Source: an uncultured Acidimicrobiia bacterium (GTDB lineage: Bacteria > Actinomycetota > Acidimicrobiia > UBA2766). Taken from it: a DNA stretch of 64,000 bases. The stretch is from contig CAYJLW010000013.1 in the NCBI GenBank assembly GCA_964370965.1, positions 5,696-69,695 on the forward strand. Reading direction: 5' to 3'. The notes below the pieces were generated by a model that worked only from the letters and a program-made list of their open reading frames with translations, was not told where the DNA came from and did not search any database. The translations under genes were made by a program, and so were the position numbers. Within the stretch, counting starts at the first letter, position 1, and each line of letters starts with the position of its first letter. Below, in pieces: positions 3,034 to 36,076 of this stretch.

Positions 3034-4095
3034 TCAGGCCGGCAGGCCGGGTTCGATGACGATGCGCTGTACGTCGCCTCCGCCTGTGCGGAGCATCTCG
3101 AGTCCCTCGGCCGTCTTCTCCAGCGGGAAGCGGTGCGTGATGGAGCCCTCGATGTCGATCTTCCCCTCGGCCTCCATGCGGAGCACCTCCACGAGGTCCT
3201 CCTCGTGGGAGGCGAACGTGCCGATCACGGAGAGCTCGAAGACCGAGAACAACGCCTGGGGGAGGTCGATGCGGGGGGGCATCATGCCCACGCCCACGGT
3301 GAGGCAGCGACCCCCGCCCACGAGGGAGTTCACGGCTTGGGCGACCGTGTCGGGGACACCCACGCACTCGAGGACGACGTCGGCGCCCTCGCCGGTGGCG
3401 GCCCGGATGCCCCCGACGGGGTCGGCGCTGCCGGCGAGGACCACGTCGGTGGCCCCGAGACGCCGGGCCCGTTCCAGGGCGGCGGGGTTGGTGTCGACGG
3501 CGACGACCTGGCCGGCGCCGAGCACCCCGGCCAGGGCCACGGCCATGGAGCCGAGGCCGCCCACGCCGATGACGGCGACCTTCTCGCCCTCTCTCATTCC
3601 CGCCCGGCACTTGAGGGCGTGGTACGGGGTGGCGACGCAGTCCGTGGCCACCGCCGCCGCCGCCAGGGACACCTCGTCCGGGACGCGCACGAGCGCCGAA
3701 TGCGGCACCCGGACGGCTTCGGCGTAGGCGCCGTCGAAGTGCAGACCGACCGCGCCGAGGCGCGGGCAGGACATGGGGTGTCCTGTGGTGCAGGCCCGGC
3801 ACTGCCCGCAGCCGTCGCCGAGGTGCATCGCCACGCGGTCGCCCACCGCCCACCCGGTGACGCCCTCCCCCAGCGTCTCGACGACACCGGCGGGTTCGTG
3901 GCCGAGGATGAGCGGGAGCGGGCCCAGCACCGGCATACCTTCGAGGACGTGGACGTCGGAGTGGCACACCCCACATGCCGCCACGCGCACGACCACGTCG
4001 CCCGGCCCCGGTTCGGGGTAGGGCACCTCGTCGAGGACGAGCGGGGTCCCGGGGGCGTGCGTGCGCACGGCGCGCATCGTGGACGGGTTCGACAT
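3034..4095 (-). CDS. zinc-dependent alcohol dehydrogenase (MDR family)
   Basis: GHEPAGVV catalytic-zinc motif, CGQCRAC structural-zinc motif, GVGGLG Rossmann motif. AT-rich promoter region upstream with a CTAGC-N7-GCTAG palindrome at 4132-4148. Confidence 0.85.
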   Translation of the reverse strand: MSNPSTMRAVRTHAPGTPLVLDEVPYPEPGPGDVVVRVAACGVCHSDVHVLEGMPVLGPLPLILGHEPAGVVETLGEGVTGWAVGDRVAMHLGDGCGQCRACTTGHPMSCPRLGAVGLHFDGAYAEAVRVPHSALVRVPDEVSLAAAAVATDCVATPYHALKCRAGMREGEKVAVIGVGGLGSMAVALAGVLGAGQVVAVDTNPAALERARRLGATDVVLAGSADPVGGIRAATGEGADVVLECVGVPDTVAQAVNSLVGGGRCLTVGVGMMPPRIDLPQALFSVFELSVIGTFASHEEDLVEVLRMEAEGKIDIEGSITHRFPLEKTAEGLEMLRTGGGDVQRIVIEPGLPA

Positions 4096-4393
4096 GTTCC
4101 CTCTTCCGCCTGCGAAAGATGTTGCACTACACTAGCAATCATCGCTAGGAAAACAAGCTTTAGGACCCCGCGAGACTGCGCCCGGCCTGCTTCGGTCAGG
4201 GGGCCGCTCGGGCCCCCTGACGAGACCACCGAGATCACGCTCGGAAGCGAGCAAGTCGTCGACATCGGCGGGATGCCCTCAACAGGGGATACTCGGGTAG
4301 ACACGGGTGTGGGCGGCCTGTCGCGGCTTCGGGTGCGACACGCTCCAGCGCCCGAAAGAACCCGCTTGCCAGCTTCCAGGCCAGGAGGTCGCG

Positions 4394-5524
4394 TCAGCCC
4401 CGCGAGTCCTGATCATCCGAGGGTCCACCTACGGCCTGATGCAGCCACGCCGTCAGGAAGTCCTCGCCGTGCTCCGACGCCTCTTCCTCAAAGGCTCCTG
4501 CTATCTCGGCCACCACGCTCTGAAACTCGTAGCCGACCACCTCGGCCGCGGCTCTGAAAGCGCGCTGATACACCCGCAGGAGCAACTCGGGCCCGACCTT
4601 GCTCTGCGTTAGTTCGTTGAGAGCCGTGCGGCCAACCACGACAGCGGTTGCCGGGGAGGCTCGCAGGACTGCGCCCTTCGAGCGATGTCCCTTTAGGGTG
4701 TTGCCGACAATGGCGGCGTAGAAGGTCCGGGCGCCCCACACCTCCTCCAACGCACGTAGCTGGTCACCGAGCCGCTTACCGTCCCCGCCCTTGGCCGACC
4801 CGGTCTTGCTCTTGATCTGAAACAGACGAATGCGCTCAGGCTCCTCAAGACTCGGCACTTGGCCGACATCTGCGCCAGGAAACGGATTCATGACAGGATC
4901 CAAAGTCTCCTTGACACCACCCTTCCCCCGAGGCTCAGGAATCCGAAAGTTGCCTCGCATAGCGCCCAAGATCTCTTGGTGAAGATTTCCGACAAGGTCC
5001 TCAATCTTCATCAAAATCTTATGGGATGTCGTGCTCTCGATTGTACGACCAAGATCACGTCCGCTGAGCAATTCAAAATTAGCCGAAAGGATGAACGGAT
5101 CCAGCACATCGCCCGGGTTACTTCCGCGGCGCAAACTGTCTGCTGATGCAGGGAACTGGCGGACTACGTCAATAACGATGCGGGCAAGGAATGCAGTTGC
5201 GCGCTCCGGGTCTGAGAAGGCGCGGCAGAGCTGTATCTGATCGGCCAATGCCTCGGCCATGCCGGTACCGGCGGACAATTCCGAGGCCAGCGCACCCAAG
5301 AGGTCGCTGTGGGCCATGTTTCCGAGTTCCAGAGCGCTCCAGTCGCTCGAAAATGGAAACCGGATCGCCCTGGTCGAAATCTTCAGGTCCGTACACGCCT
5401 TATTGAATAAGTCCACGGCCGCAGCATTTCGCAGCCACTTCAGGTCATCGCTGGCTCGGCGAATCTCATCGACAAGATCCGGGGCGAGCCCCTCAAAAGC
5501 GCCGGTGAGCCAATCGGCATTCAA
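4394..5524 (-). CDS. putative type II restriction endonuclease (partner of the C5 methyltransferase)
   Basis: 376 aa. The start (TTG at 5524) overlaps the methyltransferase stop (TGA 5523-5521). Lies immediately downstream of the M gene inside the low-GC island. No recognised family motifs, so the call is inference from context. Confidence 0.45.
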   Translation of the reverse strand: MNADWLTGAFEGLAPDLVDEIRRASDDLKWLRNAAAVDLFNKACTDLKISTRAIRFPFSSDWSALELGNMAHSDLLGALASELSAGTGMAEALADQIQLCRAFSDPERATAFLARIVIDVVRQFPASADSLRRGSNPGDVLDPFILSANFELLSGRDLGRTIESTTSHKILMKIEDLVGNLHQEILGAMRGNFRIPEPRGKGGVKETLDPVMNPFPGADVGQVPSLEEPERIRLFQIKSKTGSAKGGDGKRLGDQLRALEEVWGARTFYAAIVGNTLKGHRSKGAVLRASPATAVVVGRTALNELTQSKVGPELLLRVYQRAFRAAAEVVGYEFQSVVAEIAGAFEEEASEHGEDFLTAWLHQAVGGPSDDQDSRG

Positions 5525-6816
5525 CGTACTCGACGGTTGCGCGCGGCTGCACGAACCTTCCGTACGGCGATGGCTAGCAGCCCATCCTCGTCCTGAGGAT
5601 GGGGCGCAGCAGGTCTAGCGCCTGACATGGCCTCGGCGACGCTCCGCCCAGCTGCCATTCCGAGCGCCATGGGGACTGCGTTGCCGATCTGGACATAGTG
5701 CTGGTTCATCGATCCCGAGAATCTCCAATCATCAGGAAAACCCTGCAGCCTCGCGCACTCTCGAACCGAGAGTGGTCGGGTGTCCTGCGGATGACAGAGC
5801 GCAGAGCCCTTCCGATTCGCTTTACCCGTGATTGTCGGCGCGGGCTCATCCCAACTCAGGCGACGAAAGAACCCCGTCTTCCCACCGCCAGCCGCGTAGC
5901 TTCGTTCTCCCATGGCACGCCGAGCAATATCCGTCGGCAGAGATCGCCAGTTGCCGCCAGGCGGTACTAGATCGAAGACCCGGGCCACGTTGGGGGTATA
6001 TTGCGACCCTGGTCCGGGGTCACTGATGAGGTCTGCAATCGCGTCCTTGAGGGTGACAAAGCCCAAGCTTGATCTTGGTCCATGCGTGACTTGGGGCAAA
6101 GCTGGCGCTCCCTCGTCCCGTGATCCAAGCATTAGGAATCGAAGTCGCTTTTGCGGTGCGCCCAATTCTGAGGAATCGAAGACTCCGAAGGTAACGGCAT
6201 AACCTAACCCGGCGACCGCTGTGTCCAGCAAGAAACGCATCGCTGATCCAGACAGCTCGTCTTCTGCCAAAGGATGTGCGCCTCCGACTTCAGCCGGAAA
6301 GAGGGACGCCTGATCACGGCCGTATCTGGAGAGGTTCCAATGCTTCCCGGGCCGCTCATCGATAGGACGATGTCGAAGCGCTGCAGTCACCAAGTTGGCG
6401 ACATTCTCTAGAATGAAGAATCGCGGGCGGACTTCAGATATGAGGCGAAGATATTCAAGGATTAGGTTTCCCCGAGGATCAGAGAGAGCGGCCCGCTTCC
6501 CACCCGGACAAAAGCTCTGGCATGGGGGGCCGCCCACCATCAGGTCAACCTCGCCCGTTCCGCGGCTAGCGGCCGCCAGGTCTCGGCCGGAGAGCGATGC
6601 AACGTCCGCCTGGAGAACACTCAGGTTGGGCCGGTTGCCACGGATGGTCTCAACGAAGACTGGCTCGATCTCGACAGCCAACTCCGGAGCGAGGCCTATC
6701 GCCTCCAAGCCCAGATCGAGGCCCATCGCACCTGTGAACAAGGACCAGACTCTCGACACCCTTGACCTCTGGCGTCCGTCGGGGCAAGTCGTGAGCGTAC
6801 AGCGCCGGGATCCCAC
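5521..6816 (-). CDS. DNA (cytosine-5)-methyltransferase
   Basis: Motif I LFTGAMGLDLG, motif IV GGPPCQSFCPGG, motif VI ENV, motif X QIGNAVP, and a variable target-recognition domain between them. GTG start at 6816. Confidence 0.9.
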   Translation of the reverse strand: MGSRRCTLTTCPDGRQRSRVSRVWSLFTGAMGLDLGLEAIGLAPELAVEIEPVFVETIRGNRPNLSVLQADVASLSGRDLAAASRGTGEVDLMVGGPPCQSFCPGGKRAALSDPRGNLILEYLRLISEVRPRFFILENVANLVTAALRHRPIDERPGKHWNLSRYGRDQASLFPAEVGGAHPLAEDELSGSAMRFLLDTAVAGLGYAVTFGVFDSSELGAPQKRLRFLMLGSRDEGAPALPQVTHGPRSSLGFVTLKDAIADLISDPGPGSQYTPNVARVFDLVPPGGNWRSLPTDIARRAMGERSYAAGGGKTGFFRRLSWDEPAPTITGKANRKGSALCHPQDTRPLSVRECARLQGFPDDWRFSGSMNQHYVQIGNAVPMALGMAAGRSVAEAMSGARPAAPHPQDEDGLLAIAVRKVRAAARNRRVR

Positions 6817-7014
6817 AACGGTGGATGGGGCGCCTCCCCCCTGGCTGTCATAAGGCTGACGTGAGACACGTGTTGTAGCCCGCTATCTGTCGGGGCGAGA
6901 CCAGGACAGCGTGGAGCCCCATGTCGCCCCTTCGCCACCGCAGGAAACGGGACCCAATCCCCTCGGCCGACAGACGGCCAGCCGCGTCATGTAGAGGGCG
7001 CTCTCGATCGGGCG

Positions 7015-7440
7015 TTACCCCCTGACCACGTCCACGGACACGCAGCGGTCGAAGCGGACGGGCTGCCACTCCATGGGGGCGTACTGGAGGTGGTCGTAGC
7101 CGTCGACGAGGTGGAGCCACTTCACCATCCCGACCTCGACCTCGTTGGGGCCCTTGCCCCCCGGGGATCATGTAGTCCTCGTAGCCGTTGGAGACCGTCA
7201 GGGCGCCCGGACGCCACGTCGGGCTCGTGTGCAGGTTCACCCGAAAGTCGCCCACGTCGTTCCAGACCCCCGCGGTGTCGTCGGCGATGTCGAGAGCGGC
7301 GGCGTCGTCGGGGTGGATGAGCTGCGGACGGTGTCGGGGTGCCCACCGGTCGCTCCGGCCACCCGCTCCGGGCGGCACTCGCTGTCGAGGAGCCGCCGCA
7401 CCCGGGCCAGGAGCGGCTCCACGGTGACCGTCGTGCCGTC
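7015..7440 (-). pseudogene. C-terminal remnant of a molybdopterin bis-MGD oxidoreductase, paralogous to the 3' end of the 27563-30508 gene
   Basis: The minus-strand translation LIHPDDAAALDIADDTAGVWNDVGDFRVNLHTSPTWRPGALTVSNGYEDYMIPGG / KGPNEVEVGMVKWLHLVDGYDHLQYAPMEWQPVRFDRCVSVDVVRG* aligns with VVVHPEDAAREGIADHQPVRVSNEAGSFVVRAKLSPTQRPGGVTVYSGWDGHQFPGW...PSLVKHLGLAAGYGHLRYGPMEWQPVPCDRPVAVDIEAVVEG of the full-length gene. A +1 frameshift at the C6 run 7157-7162 separates the two segments. There is no N-terminal 800 aa, because the region upstream is the crtI-like promoter. Confidence 0.55.
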
Positions 7441-7523
7441 GGCGGGGGCGTCGTCGGTGACACGGGCGTCACCGGTTGTGGCGGGGCCTAATCGCTGGAT
7501 ATATTGGCTATCAATACCCATGA

Positions 7524-9155
7524 GTGGGAACTCACTCTCCGGGGGGATGCACGTTGAGCACACTCACCTACGACGCCATCGTCATCGGGGCGGGACACAA
7601 CGGCCTGTGCCTCGCTGCCTACCTGCAACGGGCCGGCCTCAAGACCGTCGTCGTGGAACGGCGCCACGAGGAAGGAGGCGGCGCGAACACCGAAGAACCC
7701 GTGCTGACGGGCTTCCGTCACAACATGCACGCGCAGTACATGGAGTTCTTCGACGTCATGCCGATGGTCCGGGACTTCGGCCTGGAGGAGATCGGCCTGC
7801 GCACCGTCATGCCCGAGGCGCAGGCGGGCATCACGTTCGCCGACGGCCGACCCCCCGTCGTCCTCTACCGTCCCGACCTCAACGACCGCACGTACGAGTC
7901 CATCGCCCAGTATTCCAAGGCCGACGCCGAGCTCTACGTCGAGCTCAAAGCCCGGGCGATGAAGCTCGAGGCGCTCCTCGCCGCCGGCCTCTACAACCTG
8001 CCCTCGCCCCTGTCCGAGGACCAGGCGCCCATCGTGGAGATGGTCTTCGGGGACCTCGGCCTCACGAAGTACCACGCCACCAAGACCTGCAAGGTCCTCA
8101 TCGACGAGCTCTTCGAGACCTCCGAGCTGCGGGCGCTGCTGTACCGCACCTGCGTGGAGTGGGGCTTCCCCATCGACGACTGGGGCACCGCACCGGGCTG
8201 GCTCACGTTCATCATGTGGACCATGTCCAACTGGAAGCTCACCGTCGGGGGCACCCACACGCTGGCCAAGGCCATGATGCAGGCCTGCTACCGCGAGGGG
8301 GTCGACCTCATCGAGAACACCATGGTCGAGCGGGTCGTCGTGGAGGACGGCCGTGCCGGGGGGGTGGTCGCCCGGGGCCGTGAGATCCGGGCGACCAAGG
8401 TTGTGGCCTCCAACGCCGACCTGAAGCAGACCCTGCTCGACTTCGTGGGCGAGGACCACCTCTCGGAGCTGTGGGTGAAGAGGGCGAAGGCCTACCGCTA
8501 CGGCCCCAGCCACGTCCTGGGCACGCCGATGTTCTGCCTCTACGAAGCCCCCGAGTACAAGTCGGCGCGATGGAACCCAGACATCGACAAGACCTTCTAC
8601 ACGATGGTCGGCTTCGACGGCGCCGACGACACCGCCCGCTACATCCGCGACGCCTACAGCGGGACGATGCCCAAGCCGGCGGCCGGCATGTGGGTGAACA
8701 CCCTCTGGGACCCCCAGCAGGCCCCGGCCGGGCGACAGTCCGCCACCGGCTGGTACTTCCTCCCCCCGGCGAGCGCCCTGTCGAGCGAGGAATGGGCCGA
8801 CGTGCGGGCGACGTTCAACGAACGGTTCCTGTCGGTGTGGCGCCAACACGCCCCCAACATGACCCCGGCGAACGTGATCGCGCACAAGCTCTACACACCG
8901 GACCAGATGGAGCACAAGAACCTCATGCGCGAGGGGGACTTCTCCAACGGCGAGTTCGCCCCCGACCAGTTGGGTGCCAACAGGCCCTTCCCCGAGGCGT
9001 CCAACTACCGCACCGAGGTCGACGGCCTGTACCTGTGCGGCCCTTCGGCCTACCCGGGCGGCGGGGTCCACGCCGCCTGCGGCTACAACGCCTTCAAGGC
9101 GATCGCCGAGGACCTCGGGCTGCCCAGCCCCATCGTGGCCGAGAGGGGGTACTGA
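7524..9155 (+). CDS. CrtI/phytoene-desaturase-family FAD-dependent oxidoreductase (paralog A1)
   Basis: N-terminal dinucleotide-binding YDAIVIGAGHNGL...ERRHEEGGG. C-terminal family motif CGPSAYPGGGVHAACGYNA. Start is GTG at 7524, or TTG at 7554 behind a GGGGGGA SD-like run. Confidence 0.85.
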   Translation: MGTHSPGGCTLSTLTYDAIVIGAGHNGLCLAAYLQRAGLKTVVVERRHEEGGGANTEEPVLTGFRHNMHAQYMEFFDVMPMVRDFGLEEIGLRTVMPEAQAGITFADGRPPVVLYRPDLNDRTYESIAQYSKADAELYVELKARAMKLEALLAAGLYNLPSPLSEDQAPIVEMVFGDLGLTKYHATKTCKVLIDELFETSELRALLYRTCVEWGFPIDDWGTAPGWLTFIMWTMSNWKLTVGGTHTLAKAMMQACYREGVDLIENTMVERVVVEDGRAGGVVARGREIRATKVVASNADLKQTLLDFVGEDHLSELWVKRAKAYRYGPSHVLGTPMFCLYEAPEYKSARWNPDIDKTFYTMVGFDGADDTARYIRDAYSGTMPKPAAGMWVNTLWDPQQAPAGRQSATGWYFLPPASALSSEEWADVRATFNERFLSVWRQHAPNMTPANVIAHKLYTPDQMEHKNLMREGDFSNGEFAPDQLGANRPFPEASNYRTEVDGLYLCGPSAYPGGGVHAACGYNAFKAIAEDLGLPSPIVAERGY

Positions 9156-9156
9156 G

Positions 9157-9624
9157 ATGCCGGAGATCTACAGCGAGGGCTGGTACGAAGCCGTCGTCGA
9201 CACCATCAACACCAAGGTCGGGACCCTCTCGGAGAAGGACGTCCCCAAAGGCGTCTGGCACGCCGTCGTGGAGATCGTCGCCGACGGCAGGTCCCCGTAC
9301 GTGGCGGAGGGCGACACCCGTCGCTTCCTGATCCGCATCGACGGCGGCCGCTGCGCCTGGTACCGGGAGATCGACACCCCGAACCCCGAGGGCGTGGAGC
9401 TCGACTACCGCTTCGTGGGCCCCGCCGCCGCCTTCGACGGCATCGCCGCCGGCATCGTCGACCCCGTCGACGCCGCCCTCGACGGCACCGTGCGGGTGCG
9501 GGGCGACATGCGCTTCCTGATGCGCCAGGCGGAGCTCGTGAAGACGCTCCTTGAGGCCTACACGTCCGGGGTGGACACGGAATGGCCCGCCGGCCGCCCG
9601 CCCTACAACGGTGCCGCCGGCTGA
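9157..9624 (+). CDS. SCP2 sterol/lipid-carrier-domain protein
   Basis: 155 aa. The ATG lies 1 nt after the A1 stop. C-terminal GDMRFLMRQAELVKTL is an SCP2-like helix motif. Confidence 0.7.
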   Translation: MPEIYSEGWYEAVVDTINTKVGTLSEKDVPKGVWHAVVEIVADGRSPYVAEGDTRRFLIRIDGGRCAWYREIDTPNPEGVELDYRFVGPAAAFDGIAAGIVDPVDAALDGTVRVRGDMRFLMRQAELVKTLLEAYTSGVDTEWPAGRPPYNGAAG

Positions 9625-9676
9625 GCCCGGCTGCCCCCTGCATTGGCAGTTCCCGTGCGAGTGAAAGGTCCTGGGG

Positions 9677-11272
9677 ATGCGTGACAGCTACGACGTGATC
9701 ATCGTGGGGGCGGGTCACAACGGCCTCACCCTCGGCTGCTACCTGGCGCGGGCCGGTCTCGACGTCCTGGTGCTGGAGCGCCGCCACGAGGAAGGCGGCG
9801 GCCTCTGCACAGAGGAGGTCACCCAGCCGGGGTTCCTGCACAACATCCACGCCAACTACCACACCTTCGTCGACCTGGCACCGCCCGTGAACGATCTCGA
9901 GGTGCGCGCGCACGGCGCCGAGTACGTGCGGCCCGAGGTGCAGATGGCGTCCCTCTACCCGGACGGCACGGCGCTCACCATCCACACCGACATGGACAAG
10001 ACGCAGGCGTCCATGGCCCGCTTCTCGGAACGGGACGCCGAGACCTTCGGCCGCCTCCACCGGGAGGCACACGGCTACATCGACCTCCTCCTGGGCACCC
10101 TCATGTACCAGCCGCCCATGTCGGTCAAGGAGCTCACCAAGGCGCTGGCGTCCTTCGGCGTCGAGGACCGCTCGGAGTTCCTGTCCGTGAAGCTCCGCCG
10201 CGAGTCGATCAACCAGTTCCTCGACCGCCACTTCGAGAGCGACAAGGTCAAAGCGCACCTCGCCTTCCACGGGGCCGTGTGCTCGTACACCAACGACGTC
10301 CCGGGCCTGGCGATCGGCTACCCGCTCCTGATCGGCAAGATCAGCAACTGGCACGTGTGCGTGGGCGGCTCGCACCGTCTCGCCCACGCCCTCTGGCGGG
10401 ACCTCGCCCAGCACGGCGGCACGATGGTGTCCTGTGCCGAGGTGTCCCGGATCCTCGTCGACGGCGGCCGTGCCGTCGGGGTGCGCCTCGCCGACGGCAC
10501 GGAGATCGCCGCCCGTCAGGCCGTCGCCTCCACGGTGTCGGTGGAGCAGACGTTCCTGGAGTTCCTCAACGCCTCGGCGACCTCGGAGGAGTTCACGCAG
10601 AAGGTCAAGACGGAGGTGCAGCACAAGGACTGGACGCTGTTCTCGGTGCACCTCGCCATGAACCGCTTCCCCGAGTACACGGCGGCGGCCTTCGACGAGG
10701 ACGTGAACCGGGCATGGGTCGTGAACCTGGGCTACGACAGCCTCGACGCCCTGAACGCCGACTGGGCCGCGATACGGGCGGGCGGCCTGCCCGAGCCGAG
10801 GCCCAACGCCGCGGTGAACAGCCTCTACGACCCCACCGACGCCCCCGCCGGATGCGCCACCGGACTCCTGCGCCAGTTCGCCCCCTTCGCCCTCGCCGAC
10901 GGCGGCGAGGGCGCCTGGGAGAAGGCGGGGCGCTGGTACGGCCAGCGTTGCATCGAGGCCTGGCGGGAGTACGCCCCGAACCTCACCGACGACGCCTTCG
11001 TCGAGTGGGCCGTGGACACCCCCCTCGACATCACCCGCAAGCTCCCCAACATGCCCCGGGGGGACTGGATGATGGGCGAGATCAGCCTGGACAACATGCT
11101 GGACGAGCGGCCCCTCCCGGAGCTCGGCCAGTACAAGACACCCGTGGAGCGCCTCTACATGGCGGGTTCCACGCAGCATCCCCACGGCTTCATAACGTTC
11201 GGCCCGGGCTACAACGCCCTCCAGGTGATCGCCGACGACCTCGGCGTCGACAAGTGGTGGCGCAAGATCTGA
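9677..11272 (+). CDS. CrtI/phytoene-desaturase-family FAD-dependent oxidoreductase (paralog A2)
   Basis: YDVIIVGAGHNGL...ERRHEEGGG; C-terminal AGSTQHPHGFITFGPGYNA. Confidence 0.85.
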   Translation: MRDSYDVIIVGAGHNGLTLGCYLARAGLDVLVLERRHEEGGGLCTEEVTQPGFLHNIHANYHTFVDLAPPVNDLEVRAHGAEYVRPEVQMASLYPDGTALTIHTDMDKTQASMARFSERDAETFGRLHREAHGYIDLLLGTLMYQPPMSVKELTKALASFGVEDRSEFLSVKLRRESINQFLDRHFESDKVKAHLAFHGAVCSYTNDVPGLAIGYPLLIGKISNWHVCVGGSHRLAHALWRDLAQHGGTMVSCAEVSRILVDGGRAVGVRLADGTEIAARQAVASTVSVEQTFLEFLNASATSEEFTQKVKTEVQHKDWTLFSVHLAMNRFPEYTAAAFDEDVNRAWVVNLGYDSLDALNADWAAIRAGGLPEPRPNAAVNSLYDPTDAPAGCATGLLRQFAPFALADGGEGAWEKAGRWYGQRCIEAWREYAPNLTDDAFVEWAVDTPLDITRKLPNMPRGDWMMGEISLDNMLDERPLPELGQYKTPVERLYMAGSTQHPHGFITFGPGYNALQVIADDLGVDKWWRKI

Positions 11273-11300
11273 CGGCTCCCCAGAACGGGGACGGAGAGAG

Positions 11301-11828
11301 ATGACGTCTGCAGCGACAACGGCCCCCACGGTCCGCCTGGACGCCGGTGAGGAGGCGTCCGGGCTCGCCATGATCCTCGGCGACCTCATCGAGTCGAACC
11401 TGCGGGACTTCCCCGGCCGACGCCGGGTGGCATCCACGTCCCGGGGCGAGATCGTCCTGTCCGCGTCCGACCGGGACGTCTCGGTGACCCTCTCCTTCCG
11501 GGGAGACGAGATCGTCATCTCCGAGGGCGCCCTCGACACGGCCCCGGCCCTGCGCGGAGCCTGGCTCGAGATGGCCGCCGTCTGCAGCGGCCGCCTGAAC
11601 CCCCTGCGGGCGATGGCCCAGGGCAAGCTCAGCGTCGCCCTGCGCCGCAGCCCCGCCCTCGTCGCCGCCACCGGCTTCGTCCTCTCTGTGCCCGAGTCGT
11701 TCTACGAGGACGACGCGGAGACCGCCGCCCGGCGTCGTCGCCAGGCCCTTGTCGTCGGTGCGGGTGTGGCCGCCGCCGCGACCGGCGTGGGAGTCGCCGT
11801 CTACGCCCGACGCCGGAGCTCCCCATGA
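11301..11828 (+). CDS. SCP2-domain protein with C-terminal membrane anchor
   Basis: MILGDLIESNL...RGAWLEMAAVCSGRLNPLRAMAQGKLSV is an SCP2-like fold signature. C-terminal VVGAGVAAAATGVGVAVY is a hydrophobic helix. RBS GGAGAGAG. Confidence 0.6.
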   Translation: MTSAATTAPTVRLDAGEEASGLAMILGDLIESNLRDFPGRRRVASTSRGEIVLSASDRDVSVTLSFRGDEIVISEGALDTAPALRGAWLEMAAVCSGRLNPLRAMAQGKLSVALRRSPALVAATGFVLSVPESFYEDDAETAARRRRQALVVGAGVAAAATGVGVAVYARRRSSP

Positions 11829-12822: not shown

Positions 12823-13379
12823 CTACACAACCGTGGATCGACCGCCTGGCGGCTCCCCGATGCCGAAGCGCGACTCCGTGACCGACACGTACTCCCGGCC
12901 CAGGTCCAGGCGGGCCGAGCCGAGCTCGGGACGGTTGGGCGTGTCGGGGAACATCTGGGGCTCCAACGACACCGAGCCGTGACGACGGAACGGCGCGCCA
13001 AGCCCGTTGCCTGTGTACACCTGATCGGCGCTCACGTGCATCCAGCGGCCGCTGGCGGGTGCGTCCAGCACCGCGGCCAGGCGGACGGTCCCCGCTTCTC
13101 CGGCGATCTCGTAGCAGTGGTCGAGTCCCGGCCCCGACGCCTCGCGTATCGCCCGATCGAAGCGCCCAGATGCGGGTTGCGTCCGTGGTCCTCGTACGCC
13201 GCGAGATCCGGCAGGCTGAGGTGGACGTCGGCGAGCTCACCCGACCTGTCCGGTGCTTCCAGCGAACGGATGGCCGCCCCCAGGGCGAGCAACCGCAACC
13301 GCAGCACGGGGCTCTCCAGACACACCTGCTCGACAGCGTGGCCGTCCTCGGTCACCCCCATCTGCTCCGCGAGCGCCAT
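12823..13379 (-). pseudogene. aldose 1-epimerase (mutarotase) N-terminal fragment, frameshifted
   Basis: The first frame gives ...LPDLAAYEDHGRNPHLGASIGRYARR (the mutarotase LGASIGRYANRI block). It then runs out of frame and resumes in another frame (RHGSVSLEPQMFPDTPN). Only about 180 codons remain before the cofD end. Confidence 0.45.
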
Positions 13380-13382
13380 GGG

Positions 13383-14195
13383 TCAGAGCCCCGGGCTGGA
13401 CTGGACCAAACCGCCGTCGACCGTCACCGTCGTGGCTGTCAGGTACGAGGCCCCCGGACCGGCCAGGAAGGCGACCACCTCCGCGATCTCCTCGGGCTGG
13501 GCCATGCGCCCCAGCGGGATCGCCGCATCCAGTACCGCCATCTTCCCCGGGTCCGCCATCGTCGCCGCGTTGATCGGGGTCGCCACCGCTCCCGGTCCCA
13601 CCCCGACCACGTTGATGCCGTGCGACGCCAGTTCCACCCCGGCAGTGCGGGTGAGCATCCGCATGGCGCCCTTCGAGAGGCAGTAGGGCGCGTTGCCGGG
13701 CATCGGCCAGTCCTCGTGCACGGAGGACATGTTGACGATCCGTCCACCGTCGCCCTGCGCGATCATCTGGCGTGCGGCGACCTGCGTTCCGAAGAAGGCC
13801 GATCGCAGGTTCACCGCCAGCACCTTGTCGTACTCCTCCTCGGTGGTGTCGAGCACCGACGTCCGGGTCTCCATCCCTGCGTTGTTGACCCAGACGTCCA
13901 GCCGGCCCCATTGCGCCGTGGCGGCGTCGACCAGTGCCTGCAGGTCGGACACCTTGGTCACGTCCGCGTCGACGCCGATGGCGTGCTCGCCGAGTGCGGC
14001 GATCCAGCGCTCCAGGGTCTCGGTGGCCTCCGGGTGACTGACGTAGTCGATGACCACCTCCGCTCCACGGGCTGCGAGAGCGAGGACGACAGCCTTGCCG
14101 ATGCCGCTGTTGCCGCCGGTGACCACGGCCACCTTGCCCGCCAAAGGCTGTTCGGGGGGGGTGTCAACGGCGTCTGACGGGGTCGTGGCGTTCAT
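13383..14195 (-). CDS. SDR-family oxidoreductase (3-oxoacyl-ACP reductase / glucose dehydrogenase-like)
   Basis: TGGNSGIG cofactor motif, NNAG, catalytic S...YCLSK. Start is ATG at 14195 behind GGAGG. The long upstream ORF extension is an artefact. Confidence 0.85.
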   Translation of the reverse strand: MNATTPSDAVDTPPEQPLAGKVAVVTGGNSGIGKAVVLALAARGAEVVIDYVSHPEATETLERWIAALGEHAIGVDADVTKVSDLQALVDAATAQWGRLDVWVNNAGMETRTSVLDTTEEEYDKVLAVNLRSAFFGTQVAARQMIAQGDGGRIVNMSSVHEDWPMPGNAPYCLSKGAMRMLTRTAGVELASHGINVVGVGPGAVATPINAATMADPGKMAVLDAAIPLGRMAQPEEIAEVVAFLAGPGASYLTATTVTVDGGLVQSSPGL

Positions 14196-22489: not shown

Positions 22490-23335
22490 TCAAGGGGTCG
22501 AGCCGTTGCCCAGGGTCGGCAGGACATAGCGCTCCACGGCGTGGGCGAAGCCGTCCTCGGCGTTGGACGCGGTCACATGGCGGGCCGCTCGCTGGACCTC
22601 GCGGTCGGCGTTGCCCATGGCGATGCTCATCCCGGAGCGGGCGAACATGAGGATGTCGTTGGGCATGTCCCCGAGCGTGCAGACCGCCTCCGCCGCTATG
22701 CCGAGCGTCTCGCACAGGTGGCCCGCCACTACTCCCTTGTTGGCGAGGGGGTGGGTGACGTCGAGGTAGTAGGGCTGGGAGCGGGCGGCCGACACGTGGT
22801 GGCCGACGAGTTCCCGCGCCTCGCCCTCCACGCGGGCCACGAGGTCGTGGTCGTCGCTGACTCCGACGATCTTGGCCAGGCCGGCGCCGTCGGCCGCGGC
22901 GGCGACCACGTCGTCGAAGTCGCTCACGACCGTGGGCTCGAACTGCACCGTGAAGGCCTCCCGGCCCACGTGGGGCGCGTCGGCGTCGCGGACCAACCAC
23001 TCGGCGCCGCGGTAGATCCAGGCGTCCAGCCCCCGGGATTCGATCAGTTCGAGCACCGGGCGGACGGCCACCTCGGGCAGAGTCCGCTGATCGAGCACCT
23101 GCATGGTGGCATCGACGTAGACACCGCCGTTGAAGGCGGCGATGGGCGCGGTGAGGGCCAGGGGATCGACGAGCATGGCCATGCCGCGGGGCGGGCGGCC
23201 GCTCGTCACCGCGAAGGCGATGCCGGCGTCGTGAAGCCGGTGCACGGCCTCCACCGCTGCGTCGGTCAGCACCTTGTCGGGCGTCACGAGCGTGCCGTCG
23301 ACGTCGGTGAGGACGAGGTGGACCGCCGTCGTCAC
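22490..23335 (-). CDS. HAD-IIB (Cof-type) phosphatase
   Basis: DVDGTL motif I, TSGRP motif II, GDMPNDILM motif IV. GTG start at 23335. Confidence 0.8.
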   Translation of the reverse strand: MTTAVHLVLTDVDGTLVTPDKVLTDAAVEAVHRLHDAGIAFAVTSGRPPRGMAMLVDPLALTAPIAAFNGGVYVDATMQVLDQRTLPEVAVRPVLELIESRGLDAWIYRGAEWLVRDADAPHVGREAFTVQFEPTVVSDFDDVVAAAADGAGLAKIVGVSDDHDLVARVEGEARELVGHHVSAARSQPYYLDVTHPLANKGVVAGHLCETLGIAAEAVCTLGDMPNDILMFARSGMSIAMGNADREVQRAARHVTASNAEDGFAHAVERYVLPTLGNGSTP

Positions 23336-23646
23336 GTCGTTCCCGTCTCGTCGACGTCGCCCACCACGGGACCTTCCTCGGCCTCGTCACCCCAGTCGAT
23401 GAGCCGGTCCACGAGGGTCACACGAACGTGGGCCTCGGCCAGGGCGACGGCGCAGCCCACCCCGGCGAACCCGCCCCCCGCGACCACGACGTGAGTGCCC
23501 GACCGGCGCTCCTCGGCGGCGCCACGGTGGGACTTCACGGCACATCTCCGCCGGCAAGACCGGCCCGACAGGGGCTCATCCGCTCGGTCTCCTCCAGAGT
23601 GCGGCCGCTGGTCTCCGCCGAGATCCGCAGGATCCACACGAGGCAT
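23332..23646 (-). pseudogene. N-terminal fragment of an FAD/NAD(P)-binding oxidoreductase (about 50 aa of Rossmann fold, then a stop)
   Basis: THVVVAGGGFAGVGCAVALAEAHVRVTLVDR is a classic GxGxxG beta-alpha-beta motif, followed only by LIDWGDEAEEGPVVGDVDETGTT*. Its stop forms a GTGA overlap with the HAD start. Confidence 0.35.
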
Positions 23647-23821
23647 GAGGAGTACATGCGGCGAGGACTCGGTACTTCACCGCCTCGCCGGCGGCTCCTT
23701 CGCGAACTGTACCCCGCCCCCGAGGGGCGCCGGACCACTCTCCCGACGGGCCCGGGAGACCGTCGCCCGGCACCCCGCCCATGCGGCCGGCATCCCAGGC
23801 CGACCGTTCCTGGCGCGCTCG

Positions 23822-26800: not shown

Positions 26801-27523
26801 GTGACCGACATCTTCGCCATGCCACAGCCAGGGGAGATGATGTGGATCGGCGCCCGCATCCTCGTCGTCGACGTCGAGGTGCACGCCGAGGCGGCCCGCC
26901 GCCTCCTGCCCCCCACCCTGGAGCTGTCCGAGCCGGCGGCAGCCACCCTCTTCGTCGCCGAGTACCCCGAGACTGCCTTCGGCTCCGTCTACAACGAGGC
27001 CGCCGTCATCCTCCACGGCACCGACGGCAAGGGCGAGATCGGCCACTGCCCCTGGATGGTCGTGGACGAGGACACCGCCCTCATCCTCGGCCGGGAGACG
27101 CTCGGTTTCCCGAAGAAGCTCGCCGACATCAGCCTCCAGCTCGACGGCGACCGCGCCGTGGGCACCGTCGTGCGCCGCGGCGAGGAGGTCCTGCGCCTCG
27201 AGGCTCACCTGGGTGGCGTCGAGACCGACCCCGAGCCCATCCTGGCCCGCCGGGGCGTGAACCTCTTCGGCTCGATCATCGGGGGCATGCGCCTCATCGA
27301 GCTCCCTCCTCCCAACCAGGAGATACACGAATCCCGCAGCGCGGAGGCCAAGGTCGTCCTGGGGCGCACCGACCGCGACCCCCTGGGCGACCTCCGGGCC
27401 GGGACGGTCCGCGGGGCCCGCTACGTCCACCTGGACTTCGGCTCCGGCACCGACATGCCCAAGCTCCTGGGCAAGGTCGACTTCGCCTGGAGCCTCCCCC
27501 GGTTCCTCGCCAACGCCCTCTGA
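26801..27523 (+). CDS. acetoacetate decarboxylase (ADC) superfamily protein
   Basis: About 240 aa of a beta-rich protein. Blocks typical of ADC-like family proteins (AAVILHGTDGKGEIGHCPWMVVDED, RETLGFPKK). Called by pattern memory. Confidence 0.65.
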   Translation: MTDIFAMPQPGEMMWIGARILVVDVEVHAEAARRLLPPTLELSEPAAATLFVAEYPETAFGSVYNEAAVILHGTDGKGEIGHCPWMVVDEDTALILGRETLGFPKKLADISLQLDGDRAVGTVVRRGEEVLRLEAHLGGVETDPEPILARRGVNLFGSIIGGMRLIELPPPNQEIHESRSAEAKVVLGRTDRDPLGDLRAGTVRGARYVHLDFGSGTDMPKLLGKVDFAWSLPRFLANAL

Positions 27524-27562
27524 GCGCACCGAGCCACGCTCCCTTCCCCACGAGGCACTGAC

Positions 27563-30508
27563 GTGAGCGCACCAGACCCCTCCCGCCCCGGCGAAGCCCG
27601 CCACCGCTCCCGCTGGACATGGGACAGCGTGGCGTGGGGCAGCCACTGCGTGGACTGCTACCCGGGCAACTGCAGCTACCGCCTGTACGTGCGCGACGGC
27701 AAGGTCGTGCGCGAGGAGGTCGCCGGCGCGGGCGAGCCCTCCTCGGGCTCCCTCCCTGACGGCCTCCCCCTGGGATGCAACAAGGGGGCGGCCTGGAGCG
27801 CCCAGATCGAGGGCCCCGACCGCGTACGCTGGCCGATGCGCCGGGTGGGAGAGCGGGGCTCGGGCGCGTGGGAACGCCTGAGCTGGGACGACGCCCTCGA
27901 CGCCGTCGCCGACGTCCTCGTCGACACGATCGAGGCCGACGGACCCGGCGCCATCCTCCGGGAGGGGACACCCCAGGTCGGCGTCGGTCTCGCCCCGGAT
28001 CGTTTCGTACACCTCCTCGGCGGCACCGTCACTGACCTGAACGGGGCGATCAACGACTTCGCCAACGGCCTGCACATCACGTTCGGGAAGTCCAACCCGG
28101 TCTACTCGCCCCGCAGCGTCTTCGAAGCCGACGTCCTCCTCCTCTGGCACATCAACCCCGCCTACACGCTGATTCCCGTCTACCACTGGATGACCGAGGC
28201 CCGCTACCGGGGCGCCGAGGTCGTCCTCTTCTCCCCCGACGTGAACCCCACCCACAGCCACGTCGACTACGCGGTGCCCGTACGCTGGGGCGCCGACGCC
28301 GCGGTCGTCCTCGCCATGTGCCAGGTGGTCGTCGCCGAAGGCCTCGTCGACGAAGGCTTCGTCGCGACCCAGACCGACCTCTCGCTGCTCGTGCGCACCG
28401 ACACGGAGCGGTTCCTGCGCGAGAGCGACGTCGTCGCCGGCGGCCACGAGGAGCAGTTCTTCCACCTCGACCCCGGGCGGGGCGTCGTCCCCGCCGACCG
28501 CGCCAACCTCCTGTGCGACTACGAACCCGCTCTCCGGGGCCGGACGACGGTCACCCTCGCCGACGGCGGCGAGGTCGTCGTGGCGCCCCTGTTCGAGCGG
28601 GTGGCGTCCCTCCTCGCCGACTACACGCCCGAGGCCGCCGCCGAGGTGGCCGGCACGCACCCGGAGACGATCCGCACCGTCGCCCGCAAGGTGGCCGCCG
28701 GACGCACGTATGCCGCCATCGGAGGGGGCGCCGAGAAGCTCTACCACGGCGACCTCTTCCAGCGCTCCGCCCACCTCCTCCTCGGCCTCACCGGGAACTG
28801 GGGTCGCCCCGGTGCCGGGACGACGTCGTGGTCGGTGCCTCATGGCGACGGCTCGCTCCTCACGTCCGCGAAACGGACCCCCGGCCCCGAGGGCGCCGAA
28901 GTCGTCCTCGCCCTCCTCGAGAGCCTCGCCGCCGCCGTGAAGGCGTCGGACCCCACGATGTCCGACGAGCTCGCCGCCTTCGCCCTGCACCGGGGACCCC
29001 TCGCCGACAAGGCCATGGTGCCCCCGTTCTTCTTCTGGTATTGGCACGCCGGGTTCGCGGAGCGGCTCAACAACACCGCCTGGGGCGACCCCACGATGAA
29101 ACGCACCTATGACGAGTACGTCCAGGAGGCCCTCGACGAGGGCTGGTGGGCCGGCTTCGACCGCCCCGGCCCCGACGACACCCCCCGGGTCCTGATCGAG
29201 TGTGGAGGCAACATCCTGCGCCGCACCCGGGGCGGTGGTCGGCTCCTCCTCGAACACCTCTGGCCGAAGCTCGAGCTGATCGTCACCATCGACTTCCGCA
29301 TGTCCCTCACCGCCCTGCACTCCGACGTCGTCCTGCCCGCCGCCCAGCCCTACGAGAAGGTGGGCACGCACATGCCCTCCATGGAACTCACCCTCTCGGA
29401 CAGCGCCGTGGAACCCGTCGACGACGCGCTCCCCGAGTGGGAGATCTTCGCCGGTCTCTGCCGGGCCGTCGAGCGCCGCGCCGCCGCGCGGGGCCTCGAG
29501 CACTTCCGCCACTCGGGCGGCGCCCGGCGCCGCTACGACAAGCTCTGGGCGGCCTTCACCCTTAAAGGCGTCCTACGCACGACCGAGCACGTCGTGGACG
29601 AGACCATCCGGGACGCCGCCTACGCCGGGATCCTTCCCGAGGGCACGACGCTGGAGTCCCTGCGGGAGTCCGGGCGCATGAACTTCACCGGCTGGGGCGT
29701 GACCGCCTTCGGCCAGAGCCAGGCAGCGGACTGGCAGGACGACGTCCGGACCGTCGTCCCCTGGAGCAACCACGTCGAGAAGGGCGACCCCTACCCCACC
29801 CTCACCCGCCGGGCGCAGTTCCTCGTCGAGCACCCCTGGTTCGTGGAAGCGGGCGAGGACCTCCCCTGCCACAAGGAGCCCCCGCAGATGGGCGGCCCCG
29901 GCCGCTACTGGATGACCACCGGGCACAACCGCTGGTCGATCCACGCCATGAACATGGCGAACCCGTGGCTCATCCAGACCCACCGGGGCGAGCCCCACGT
30001 CGTCGTCCACCCCGAGGACGCCGCCCGCGAAGGCATCGCCGACCACCAGCCGGTGCGGGTCTCCAACGAGGCGGGCTCCTTCGTCGTGCGGGCGAAGCTC
30101 TCCCCCACCCAGCGCCCCGGCGGCGTCACCGTCTACTCGGGCTGGGACGGCCACCAGTTCCCGGGCTGGAACCCGCCCAGCGACGTCGAGCCCAGCCTCG
30201 TCAAGCACCTCGGACTCGCCGCCGGCTACGGCCACCTCCGCTACGGACCCATGGAGTGGCAGCCCGTCCCCTGCGACCGCCCCGTCGCCGTCGACATCGA
30301 GGCCGTCGTGGAGGGGGTGGGGGGGGGGGTGGCGCCCCCCCCCCCCCCCCGGGCCGGGGGGCCCGCGGCCCCCCCCCCCCCCCCCCCCCGCTCGCCCGGG
30401 GGCGCCGGCGGCACCACACCACCACACGACCGGGATGGCGGTGGCGCCGGAGACGAAGGTCCTTGCTCACGAGCGGCCAACCGTGTTCCACCGCCGTGGC
30501 ATAGATGA
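27563..30508 (+). CDS. molybdopterin bis-MGD oxidoreductase (DMSO-reductase superfamily) with N-terminal Cys-cluster motif; 3' end unresolved
   Basis: The N-terminal HCVDCYPGNCSYRLYVRDGKV...LGCNKG is an FeS-type Cys motif with atypical spacing. Size (about 920 aa) and the C-terminal molybdopterin-dinucleotide-binding domain fit the family. There is no twin-arginine signal. The reading frame continues through G/C homopolymer tracts at 30313-30400 as poly-Gly/Pro. The truncated paralog at 7015-7440 suggests the true stop lies near 30315. Confidence 0.75.
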   Translation: MSAPDPSRPGEARHRSRWTWDSVAWGSHCVDCYPGNCSYRLYVRDGKVVREEVAGAGEPSSGSLPDGLPLGCNKGAAWSAQIEGPDRVRWPMRRVGERGSGAWERLSWDDALDAVADVLVDTIEADGPGAILREGTPQVGVGLAPDRFVHLLGGTVTDLNGAINDFANGLHITFGKSNPVYSPRSVFEADVLLLWHINPAYTLIPVYHWMTEARYRGAEVVLFSPDVNPTHSHVDYAVPVRWGADAAVVLAMCQVVVAEGLVDEGFVATQTDLSLLVRTDTERFLRESDVVAGGHEEQFFHLDPGRGVVPADRANLLCDYEPALRGRTTVTLADGGEVVVAPLFERVASLLADYTPEAAAEVAGTHPETIRTVARKVAAGRTYAAIGGGAEKLYHGDLFQRSAHLLLGLTGNWGRPGAGTTSWSVPHGDGSLLTSAKRTPGPEGAEVVLALLESLAAAVKASDPTMSDELAAFALHRGPLADKAMVPPFFFWYWHAGFAERLNNTAWGDPTMKRTYDEYVQEALDEGWWAGFDRPGPDDTPRVLIECGGNILRRTRGGGRLLLEHLWPKLELIVTIDFRMSLTALHSDVVLPAAQPYEKVGTHMPSMELTLSDSAVEPVDDALPEWEIFAGLCRAVERRAAARGLEHFRHSGGARRRYDKLWAAFTLKGVLRTTEHVVDETIRDAAYAGILPEGTTLESLRESGRMNFTGWGVTAFGQSQAADWQDDVRTVVPWSNHVEKGDPYPTLTRRAQFLVEHPWFVEAGEDLPCHKEPPQMGGPGRYWMTTGHNRWSIHAMNMANPWLIQTHRGEPHVVVHPEDAAREGIADHQPVRVSNEAGSFVVRAKLSPTQRPGGVTVYSGWDGHQFPGWNPPSDVEPSLVKHLGLAAGYGHLRYGPMEWQPVPCDRPVAVDIEAVVEGVGGGVAPPPPPRAGGPAAPPPPPPRSPGGAGGTTPPHDRDGGGAGDEGPCSRAANRVPPPWHR
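30313..30400. repeat. G/C homopolymer tract cluster (G11, C16, C24 runs) at convergent gene ends
   Basis: Directly visible: gggggtgggggggggggtggcg, then C16, then gggccgggggg, then C about 24. Both flanking genes lack proper stop codons here. Confidence 0.8.
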
Positions 30509-30803: not shown

Positions 30804-31027
30804 TGGAGTTCCCAATCGGCGCCGGTCGAGAAGAGGTCGTCCTCCTCCGCTGCGCTCACGGCCACTCCGGAGAGCCGTCCTCTGAGACCCGCGGGCCCTC
30901 CTGCCGGGACGAGGCGGGCGACCGGGCGTCCCCTCTTGGTGATGAGCACCTCCTCGCCGGCGGCCACCTCGTCGAGCAGGGCGAGGATGCGGGCCTTCAC
31001 CTCGGTGGCGGTCATCTGACGGGTCAT
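30800..31027 (-). CDS. Phd/YefM-family antitoxin
   Basis: MTATEVKARILALLDEVAAGEEVLITKRGRPVARLVP is the Phd/YefM signature. Confidence 0.75.
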   Translation of the reverse strand: MTRQMTATEVKARILALLDEVAAGEEVLITKRGRPVARLVPAGGPAGLRGRLSGVAVSAAEEDDLFSTGADWELQ

Positions 31028-33847: not shown

Positions 33848-33851
33848 GACC

Positions 33852-35567: not shown

Positions 35568-36076
35568 GGCTCAAGTCCCGCGGCCTGGGCCGCAAAGAGC
35601 TCGTGATGGACTTCCGCGAATACGACGTCGTCGCCGACGGCGACGAGATCGTGATCATGGGCACCATCCACGAGCCCGTCCACTGGGATTTCTCGATCCG
35701 GGTCTGCGAGGACGACCTCGCCGGGATCATCAACGTGGCCCTGAAGAAGTCGACGCGGCGTTTCGCCCTGCGGGCGATCTTCCGGCGCGACAAGCGCCAC
35801 CACTGGAACACCGACCGCGCCCGGCGAGTCGTCCTCGCCCGCGAGCACAGCCTGGACCTCGCCCGCAAGGAGGCGAAGGCCGCGCTCCCCGAGGGCGTCG
35901 AGGCCGACGCTGCCGAGGCCGCGATCGAGAACGACAAGGGCGTCCGCAAAGCGAGGAAGAGAGCCGAGAAGGCCCAGCGGAAGTACTCTGCCCAGGAGGA
36001 GACCGCCGCGACGGTCGTCGCCCCGGCCCCCGGTGACGCCGAGAGCCTCTCGGACGTCGGTTCGGGAGCCGCGTGA
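35566..36076 (+). CDS. hypothetical protein (compact N-terminal domain plus Lys/Arg/Ala/Glu-rich tail)
   Basis: ATG forms an ATGA overlap with the B2 stop. Codon usage is consistent with coding. No family recognised. Confidence 0.45.

Follow-up and report, generated by a model that had tools for sequence, protein, structure and literature searches.

A remnant of an ethylbenzene-dehydrogenase-like molybdoenzyme gene, probably decayed in place, beside a low-GC methylase cassette in an uncultured Acidimicrobiia bacterium

Within the 64,000-nucleotide stretch of DNA from an uncultured Acidimicrobiia bacterium that is called the window here, an intact gene for a Zn-dependent alcohol dehydrogenase (ADH; 3034-4095, minus strand) is followed by a low-GC cassette made up of a 376-aa ORF (4394-5524) and a 431-aa ORF for a C5 cytosine DNA methyltransferase (5521-6816), both on the minus strand, by a 198-nt spacer (6817-7014), and by a minus-strand relic of a molybdoenzyme gene that reaches from a stop codon at 7015-7017 to about position 7485. 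Beyond the relic, as read from the sequence, lies the AT-rich upstream region (7488-7555, plus strand) of a divergent crtI-like FAD oxidoreductase gene, whose ORF spans 7524-9155 and whose start is placed at ~7554 (533 aa) by the gene callers of sister assemblies. A further molybdoenzyme of the same family is encoded elsewhere in the window, at 27563-30508.

The relic was mapped from a three-frame translation of 7000-7560 (minus strand) together with tblastn searches that used the in-window molybdoenzyme, with the whole window included. It has no start codon and requires three reading-frame segments. Piece 1 (7327-7485, minus strand) corresponds to codons ~321-386 in the middle of a ~933-codon molybdoenzyme (Mo) alpha-subunit gene, in the Molybdopterin domain region; its homology is evident at the nucleotide level over 7444-7327 and at the protein level as far as ~7485, dwindling over 7445-7487 on the 5′ side, which carries the relic past the end at 7440 proposed in the first-pass annotation. 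Piece 2 (7166-7321, minus strand) covers codons ~832-884 of the Molydop_binding domain in a frame different from that of piece 1, and contains a deletion of one codon and compensating 1-nt indels. Piece 3 (7018-7164, minus strand) covers codons ~885-933 and retains the native C-terminus (…EWQPVRFDRCVSVDVVRG). The native TAA stop codon, read from the sequence as the complement of 7015-7017, directly follows VDVVRG, confirming the clean end described earlier.

The closest intact counterpart found is P0107, a 933-aa protein from a Logan assembly with 73-90% amino acid and 79% nucleotide identity to the relic, which ends at the same alignment position. By blastn, window positions 7444-7327 match nt 1038-1155 of the P0107 gene with 78% identity and positions 7321-7034 match nt 2494-2783 with 79% identity (E values for the two segments, best first, 4e-68 and 1e-23; relic minus strand). 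By tblastn, P0107 residues 347-387 match piece 1 with 73% identity (E 2e-15), and the C-terminal pieces are matched with E 5e-44, including 90% identity between piece 3 and the last 48 residues (885-932). The in-window protein gives the same picture at lower identity: in the whole-window tblastn, residues ~322-372 match 7485-7321 (44%), residues ~815-870 match 7321-7148 in another frame, and residues 867-912 match 7164-7027 (57%), the latter two with a joint E of 1e-22. When 120 family members were used as tblastn queries, this three-block pattern recurred, with residues ~318-387 matching 7485/7443-7321, residues ~815-875 matching 7321-7148, and residues ~867-915 matching 7164-7027. The reconstructed relic peptide had a best E of 1.4e-33 in a search of 5.8 billion proteins. 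Homology to the in-window molybdoenzyme, as first claimed, is therefore real, yet the claim that about 140 codons represent the contiguous last ~140 residues of that protein does not hold, since the matches fall into two distant parts. Only ~100 codons (7321-7018) are C-terminal, matching residues 815-912 of the in-window protein or 832-933 of P0107, whereas the ~40-55 codons upstream of them (7485/7443-7327) match residues ~322-372 or 347-387, respectively, and not the adjacent residues.

The relic's parent gene clearly belonged to the type II DMSO reductase alpha subunits, and specifically to the ethylbenzene-dehydrogenase-like members. P0107 scores 788 bits with TIGR03479 (DMSO_red_II_alp) and 685 bits with the EbdA model (NF042978), and the in-window protein scores 766 and ~685 bits; both are below the curated cutoffs of 985 and 2000 bits, as even intact members of the Acidimicrobiia clade are. 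The TIGR03479 match starts at model position 45, leaving the N-terminal (signal) segment of the model unmatched, and the Pfam domains found are PF00384 and PF01568. The canonical family is encoded in an alpha-beta-gamma-delta operon; the intact genes of the Acidimicrobiia clade lie instead near genes for an acetoacetate-decarboxylase-family protein (ADC), an acyl-CoA dehydrogenase (ACAD), and an ADH, and near crtI-like genes. Stand-alone Molydop_binding proteins of 123-156 aa occur in other metagenomes (P0012-P0014).

Set against this family, the relic aligns with the middle of the protein and with the Molydop_binding domain at its C-terminus, and the native stop is kept, but the relic does not have what functional members have, namely an N-terminal His/Cys FS0 motif, PF00384, a full PF01568, and a length of ~915-935 aa. 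Its reconstructed peptide matches PF01568 with 28.1 bits (cutoff 26.8) over profile positions 33-91 of 110 only, and yields no PF00384 match in Pfam; the FS0 cluster motif is missing, as is the greater part of the Mo-bisPGD-binding domains. The longest ORFs over the relic, of 94-176 aa, for the most part read in other frames than the homology. With codons 1 to ~320 and ~387-831 gone, ~168 of ~933 codons (~18%) are left, and the relic cannot encode an enzyme. The original description of a truncated, frameshifted molybdoenzyme pseudogene with most of its gene deleted is thus borne out, although the missing part is split in two rather than forming a single 800-aa block at the N-terminus.

Two frame changes had been proposed, one of them in the C6 run at 7157-7162, and both are present. 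The second proved to be the junction of an internal deletion at 7322-7326 (minus strand), the point at which the two blastn alignments to the P0107 gene meet; a base-level comparison of both sides has the left block running on to 'CGCA' and the right block beginning 'G CTC', with no microhomology evident at the junction. The deletion removed 1333 nt (P0107 gene nt 1160-2492, codons ~387-831) and fused codon ~386 to codon ~832, and because 1333 nt is 3×444+1 it is out of frame. The homopolymer lesion is a +1-nt insertion, relative to the P0107 gene, in a C6G4 tract at 7157-7166 in plus-strand reading (C6 at 7157-7162, G4 at 7163-7166), which puts pieces 2 and 3 in different frames. On the minus strand the window reads ATCCCCGGGGGGCAAG where the intact P0107 gene reads TTCCCGGGTGGCAAG, one base fewer, and removing one base from the tract restores I-P-G-G-K-G-P-N-E-V. 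A programmed ribosomal frameshift was considered at this site and rejected, as intact homologs are in frame with TTCCCGGGTGGCAAG and what the relic keeps of the gene is a small part with no start codon.

The in-window molybdoenzyme gene has a different neighborhood, with an ADC gene upstream and PIN/RHH genes downstream, and it had been treated implicitly as the parent of the relic. Its identity to the relic (57% in piece 3 and 44% in piece 1, compared with 90% and 73% for P0107) shows otherwise, and by these sequence comparisons the relic is the remnant of a second paralog, closest to the P0107 clade. It does retain the normal family C-terminus, with 13 residues after the EWQPV motif, the most frequent length among ~90 homologs that range from 13 to 31. 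Past this motif the in-window ORF continues for 79 residues, and its near-identical counterpart P0016 from another assembly (96% overall by BLASTP) for 249, because both ORFs, with no stop codon in the way, run on into a G12/C16/G6/C21 homopolymer block (30310-30395) that varies between assemblies. The earlier reading of the long 27563-30508 tail as non-family sequence is therefore correct, but the relic cannot be said to reveal the C-terminus of the family, which is evident already from the ~90 intact homologs and to which the relic adds nothing.

An intact relative at the corresponding position, the check that had been proposed, was found in L122-L124. These 11-kb contigs, which extend the P0107 contig L001 (99.95% identical), were retrieved by look-up of P0137, the best match (79%) of a search with the window ADH. 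L122 carries, in order, Macro(-), an intact Mo gene (+, 3093-5894), ACAD(-), ADC(-), and ADH(+, 8008-9078). DNA comparison yielded three blocks, all colinear and in one relative orientation: L122 4130-4247 with window 7444-7327 (79%), L122 5586-5875 with window 7321-7034 (79%), and L122 8035-9081 with window 4080-3031 (77%). The relic and the ADH gene therefore descend from one ancestral locus, and decay took place in situ. The window ADH shares 79% amino acid and 77% nucleotide identity with its L122 counterpart, and 62-69% identity with the cluster-terminal ADH in L039, L042, L044, and L063. In a metagenome scan with P0107 followed by local tblastn, L042, L044, and L063 were found to have the order Mo-ADC-ACAD-ADH, and L039 the order Mo-ADC-ACAD-LGT-ADH, so that intact counterparts exist at the syntenic position in these clusters as well. 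On the contigs with the closest C-terminal fragments (P0001 and P0004), an ADC-family gene and an ACAD gene likewise come after the Mo gene. The conserved ADH is thus the downstream anchor of an ancestral Mo-ADC-ACAD-ADH cluster, a feature overlooked in the first-pass annotation, as was the position of the methylase cassette in place of ADC and ACAD.

Some features of these comparisons bear on how closely the ancestral state can be drawn. The ADC-ACAD pair of L122 is inverted relative to L039, L042, L044, and L063, which leaves the exact ancestral gene order uncertain. The nearest intact comparator is ~79% identical in DNA, and the state immediately before decay is absent from the sister strains found. 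The ADH context is not universal: L126, with an ADH 78% identical, has no nearby Mo gene, and L127 (74%) is arranged differently. Neither ADC, ACAD, LGT, nor 4Fe-4S beta-subunit remnants were detected below E 0.01 by tblastn of 3900-7700 and of the whole window, where the sole match in the ADC search was the intact paralog at 26801-27523. ACAD and ADC occupy 2113 nt in L122, and the corresponding interval of the window (4096-7014) is 2919 nt long and holds the methylase cassette. The spacer at 6817-7014, from the relic stop to the methylase ORF start, holds the right-hand boundary of the replacement, and the conserved ADC start PISMPWS is absent from its three-frame translation.

The cassette is set apart by its base composition, with a GC content of 53-63% across ~4400-6800 compared with ~70% in the flanks, the window being high-GC (about 70%) actinobacterial sequence. 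The methylase ORF matches PF00145 (E 3.6e-51) and TIGR00675 (E 3.5e-46) and includes both motif I (FTGAMGLDLG), which lies upstream of the start chosen by the gene caller, and motif IV (PPCQ). The 376-aa ORF, which shares 4 nt with the end of the methylase ORF, lies in the lowest-GC part of the window and presumably encodes the endonuclease partner of the methylase; no family match was obtained for it in Pfam, NCBIfam, or PDB sequences. Of the restriction-modification island reported earlier, the C5 methylase is confirmed and the restriction component remains putative; the cassette may be a working restriction-modification system. Searches for direct or inverted repeats or a target duplication bracketing 4394-7014 returned only short, chance-level matches, and no integrase or transposase was present among the neighboring gene calls. 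Given this lack of flanking repeats and mobility genes, the earlier idea of an insertion and deletion hotspot is suggestive only.

The cassette is foreign in composition and lies between conserved flanks, at the place where relatives carry ADC and ACAD, and its arrival may have caused the loss of these two genes. Rearrangements of the restriction-modification 'substitution' class are common, accounting for 116 of 760 locus pairs in a classification built on intraspecific genome pairs (Furuta, Abe & Kobayashi 2010, PMC2853133). The present locus likewise has a methylase cassette where relatives hold >1 kb of unrelated genes, here ADC and ACAD, but it differs from that class in that the comparator is distant (~78% nt), the endonuclease partner is putative, and no repeats or mobility genes flank the cassette.

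On the other side, the 5′ truncation point of the relic adjoins the upstream region of the crtI-like gene. This region contains a palindrome, TATTG-N5-CAATA (7502-7516), that occurs once in the window, and it lacks conservation in relatives; a sequence scan of 6500-7700 found no promoter or terminator consensus. A search of GTDB species genomes with the crtI-like protein retrieved 32 loci with 55-87% identity, all the relatives retrieved being Acidimicrobiia MAGs, and none of the 32 loci has a Mo gene directly upstream of the crtI-like gene. The upstream context varies, with cytochrome oxidase genes in L004 and two further crtI-like genes at many loci. Among the crtI-like loci retrieved, L020 is the only one in which a P0107-like Mo gene is divergent from a crtI cluster, and there a radical-SAM-like ORF, assigned by eye, lies upstream of the Mo gene and is followed by the divergent cluster. 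Elsewhere the Mo gene is preceded by Macro and acetyl-CoA hydrolase genes (L122) or, in L043, L045, and L063, immediately by a gene for a 4Fe-4S beta subunit.

The lesions are fixed across the available assemblies. Contigs L036-L038 (7-21x coverage) match window 4000-8000 with 100% identity, and L130-L134, which came from a look-up with the ADH gene, match 4100-7600 with 99.94-100% identity; together these eight independent assemblies from different samples are 99.9-100% identical through the lesions at 6-21x coverage, and one of them was made by a different assembler (Logan, run ERR4863019). A low-coverage ninth contig, L002 (99.4% identical), has the identical junction and G6 run, and the C6G4 tract is the same in all nine. 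Because nine assemblies share them, the lesions are features of the population and not errors of sequencing or assembly. Exact-protein look-ups of window genes, including the crtI-like protein at 9677-11272, encoded in 22 contigs from numerous samples within a single ENA project, returned the same population with the same arrangement and no intact allele of the relic.

Divergence from the intact L122 gene over the 140 codons that can be compared gives the relic a dN of 0.159, a dS of 0.735, and a dN/dS of 0.22, slightly higher than the 0.15 of the ADH gene. Such a low ratio implies that most of the divergence accumulated under purifying selection and hence that inactivation was fairly recent. 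Of 25 family positions with conservation of 90% or more, 4 are substituted in the relic (G→D, Y→S, G→D, and P→R), compared with 0-2 of 29 such positions (mean 0.46) in 90 intact homologs, a pattern that appears consistent with drift since inactivation.

From this evidence, the minus-strand sequence at 7015-7485 is very probably a non-functional, in-situ remnant of the gene for a cytoplasmic, ethylbenzene-dehydrogenase-like alpha subunit of the type II DMSO reductase family. The ancestral locus comprised the Mo alpha-subunit gene followed by ADC, ACAD, and a Zn-dependent ADH, and at least four lesions dismantled it. All sequence 5′ of codon ~320 was lost, leaving the relic abutting the upstream region of the crtI-like gene; the out-of-frame 1333-nt deletion joined codon ~386 to codon ~832; slippage in the C/G homopolymer tract added 1 nt; and ADC with ACAD (~2.1 kb in the closest relative) gave way to a 2.9-kb segment holding the low-GC cassette. 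Any order among these events is presumptive. The ADH gene is the sole intact survivor of the cluster.

Other explanations for the relic were weighed against decay in place. The relic directly adjoins the low-GC cassette, both of its ends are breakpoints, and no ADC or ACAD remnant ties it to the host cluster, all of which could suggest passenger DNA, that is, a donor Mo-gene fragment carried in with the methylase. This is very unlikely, since the relic has a host-like GC content of ~70% and not the 53-63% of the cassette, the linkage of Mo gene to ADH recurs in five independent loci, and L122 is the closest contig both to the relic and to the ADH gene beyond the cassette (79% and 77% nt), with order and orientation kept, the near-equal divergence being what vertical descent of one locus predicts. 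An intragenomic origin, by duplication or recombination, as a decayed partial copy of the gene at 27563-30508 has its attraction in a significant alignment to a same-family gene only 20 kb away, but has next to no probability given the identities to P0107 reported above, which exclude the relic as its decayed duplicate, the ADH synteny that marks the relic as the counterpart of a P0107-type gene, and the different neighborhood of the in-window gene; a recent copy of that gene was rejected on the same identities. It is scarcely conceivable, too, that the gene is intact and was broken by a homopolymer miscall, a chimeric assembly, or both. One lesion does lie in a homopolymer tract, the data are metagenomic assemblies, and the block at 30310-30395 does vary between them; however, the near-perfect identity across both lesions in eight assemblies, with coverage reaching 21x and two assemblers represented, is joined by the same lesions in L002 and by flanks (the crtI-like gene and the methylase) that are continuous in all contigs, and even with the frameshift repaired ~82% of the gene would be absent.

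A last group of explanations holds that the remnant has been retained for a purpose. It might still function in a new role, as a small protein, as the product of a frameshift in the homopolymer, or as a leader or antisense element for the crtI-like operon: the relic is fixed, with no differences among many samples, gene callers predict ORFs of 94 aa and 37 aa over it, its overall dN/dS is still low, and stand-alone Molydop_binding proteins exist in other metagenomes. Such a role is extremely unlikely, as the 94-aa ORF is homologous to the enzyme in its first ~55 codons only, then runs out of frame, and has no Pfam match; the Molydop_binding segment is broken by the frameshift and is without the first ~30 profile positions; intact homologs have no slippery-site requirement here; and the scan of 6500-7700 for promoters and terminators was negative. 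Identity across samples, moreover, reflects a single recent population rather than selection, and recent inactivation alone predicts a low dN/dS. A related proposal, highly unlikely as well, is that the remnant was co-opted as a noncoding or antisense RNA or as a short peptide (the 94-aa ORF, 7237-7521), with transcription starting either in the control region of the divergent crtI-like gene or on the methylase side. If true, such a product might affect how the crtI-like operon or the methylase cassette is expressed, and co-option would explain why ~470 nt survived between two deletions.

Decay in place, the preferred reading, is ordinary bacterial gene decay; pseudogenes formed by deletion and slippage and restriction-modification substitutions are both well known, and the relic opens no new biological question. 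It resembles bacterial unitary pseudogenes in its multiple disabling lesions, its syntenic intact counterpart, and its loss of conserved residues, and differs from them in nothing essential, apart from lesions that are cleanly mappable and a dN/dS that is still low. Its main value lies in annotation, where one pseudogene feature should replace the two spurious ORFs. It also offers a tidy example of a catabolic cluster (an ethylbenzene-dehydrogenase-like molybdoenzyme, ADC, ACAD, and ADH) dismantled in an uncultured Acidimicrobiia population, with a methylase cassette now exactly in place of two of the cluster genes. Two other gene remnants are present in the same window. Taken with these, the relic points to active deletional gene loss in this lineage.

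The decayed ethylbenzene-dehydrogenase-like molybdoenzyme gene at 7015-7485 (minus strand) is apparently accompanied in the window by a further internally deleted remnant, on the minus strand at about 12823-13379. Here two small ORFs, called at 13147-13395 and 13356-13703 in the same-population contig L036, match only positions 231-297 and 3-61 of the aldose 1-epimerase profile PF01263, and the middle ~170 profile positions are missing. A third truncated relic may lie at about 23332-23657, also on the minus strand, where a 68-aa ORF precedes one of 40 aa (called at 5591-5797 and 5794-5916 in database contig L003). The 68-aa ORF carries an N-terminal FAD/NAD Rossmann motif only (DAO/Pyr_redox profile positions 1-30). 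Outside the window, three database proteins from other metagenomes (P0012, P0013, and P0014; 123-156 aa) comprise just the C-terminal Molydop_binding part of the molybdoenzyme family. These could represent additional pseudogene fragments, or else true proteins that consist of this domain alone. One of them was not cut by a contig end, since its contig is 23 kb long.

The C5 methylase gene adjoining the relic (5521-6816, minus strand) is begun by gene callers in sister assemblies at an internal ATG, giving a 339-aa product without motif I (FTGAMGLDLG). These public calls are probably 5′-truncated, because the 431-aa ORF from GTG 6816 includes that motif. On the other side of the relic, a perfect palindrome, TATTG-N5-CAATA, lies at 7502-7516 in the short AT-rich stretch that precedes the crtI-like FAD oxidoreductase gene (7524-9155). 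It occurs once in the window, with 0.02 occurrences expected by chance. The palindrome could be an operator for a TetR-like regulator, and the region around it (7497-7519) showed no conservation in relatives that are 68-80% identical.

An extraordinary G/C homopolymer block of about G12, C16, G6, and C21 occupies 30310-30395, between the convergent intact molybdoenzyme paralog, which starts at 27563, and a PIN-domain gene starting at 30815. Both ORFs are extended because neither has a stop ahead of this block, the former to 981 aa versus a family norm of ~920 aa and the latter to 204 aa versus 143 aa in the L003 gene call. The window and L003, elsewhere 99.8% identical, disagree in this block, which could be a tract that assembles unstably, a terminator hairpin, or an element that is hypervariable.

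In part of the relic's clade (loci L043, L045, and L063), a 4Fe-4S (Fer4_11) beta-subunit gene lies directly upstream of the molybdoenzyme gene. No such gene was found near the intact paralog (27563-30508) or near the molybdoenzyme gene of L122, the closest relative, and no beta-subunit homolog was found anywhere within the 64-kb window. Across Acidimicrobiia MAGs, ethylbenzene-dehydrogenase-like molybdoenzymes repeatedly have crtI-like FAD oxidoreductases beside them, in pairs and each accompanied by a small SCP2-like ORF, and acetoacetate-decarboxylase-family genes adjoin molybdoenzyme genes in the window, in L003, and in loci of the clade of P0107, the relic's nearest intact counterpart. 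Taken over 7524-11800, 26801-30508, and 32147-36000 in the window and nine other loci (L007, L015, L017, L020, L021, L022, L025, L029, and L127), the crtI-like, SCP2-like, acetoacetate-decarboxylase-family, and molybdoenzyme genes together look like a conserved catabolic gene neighbourhood.
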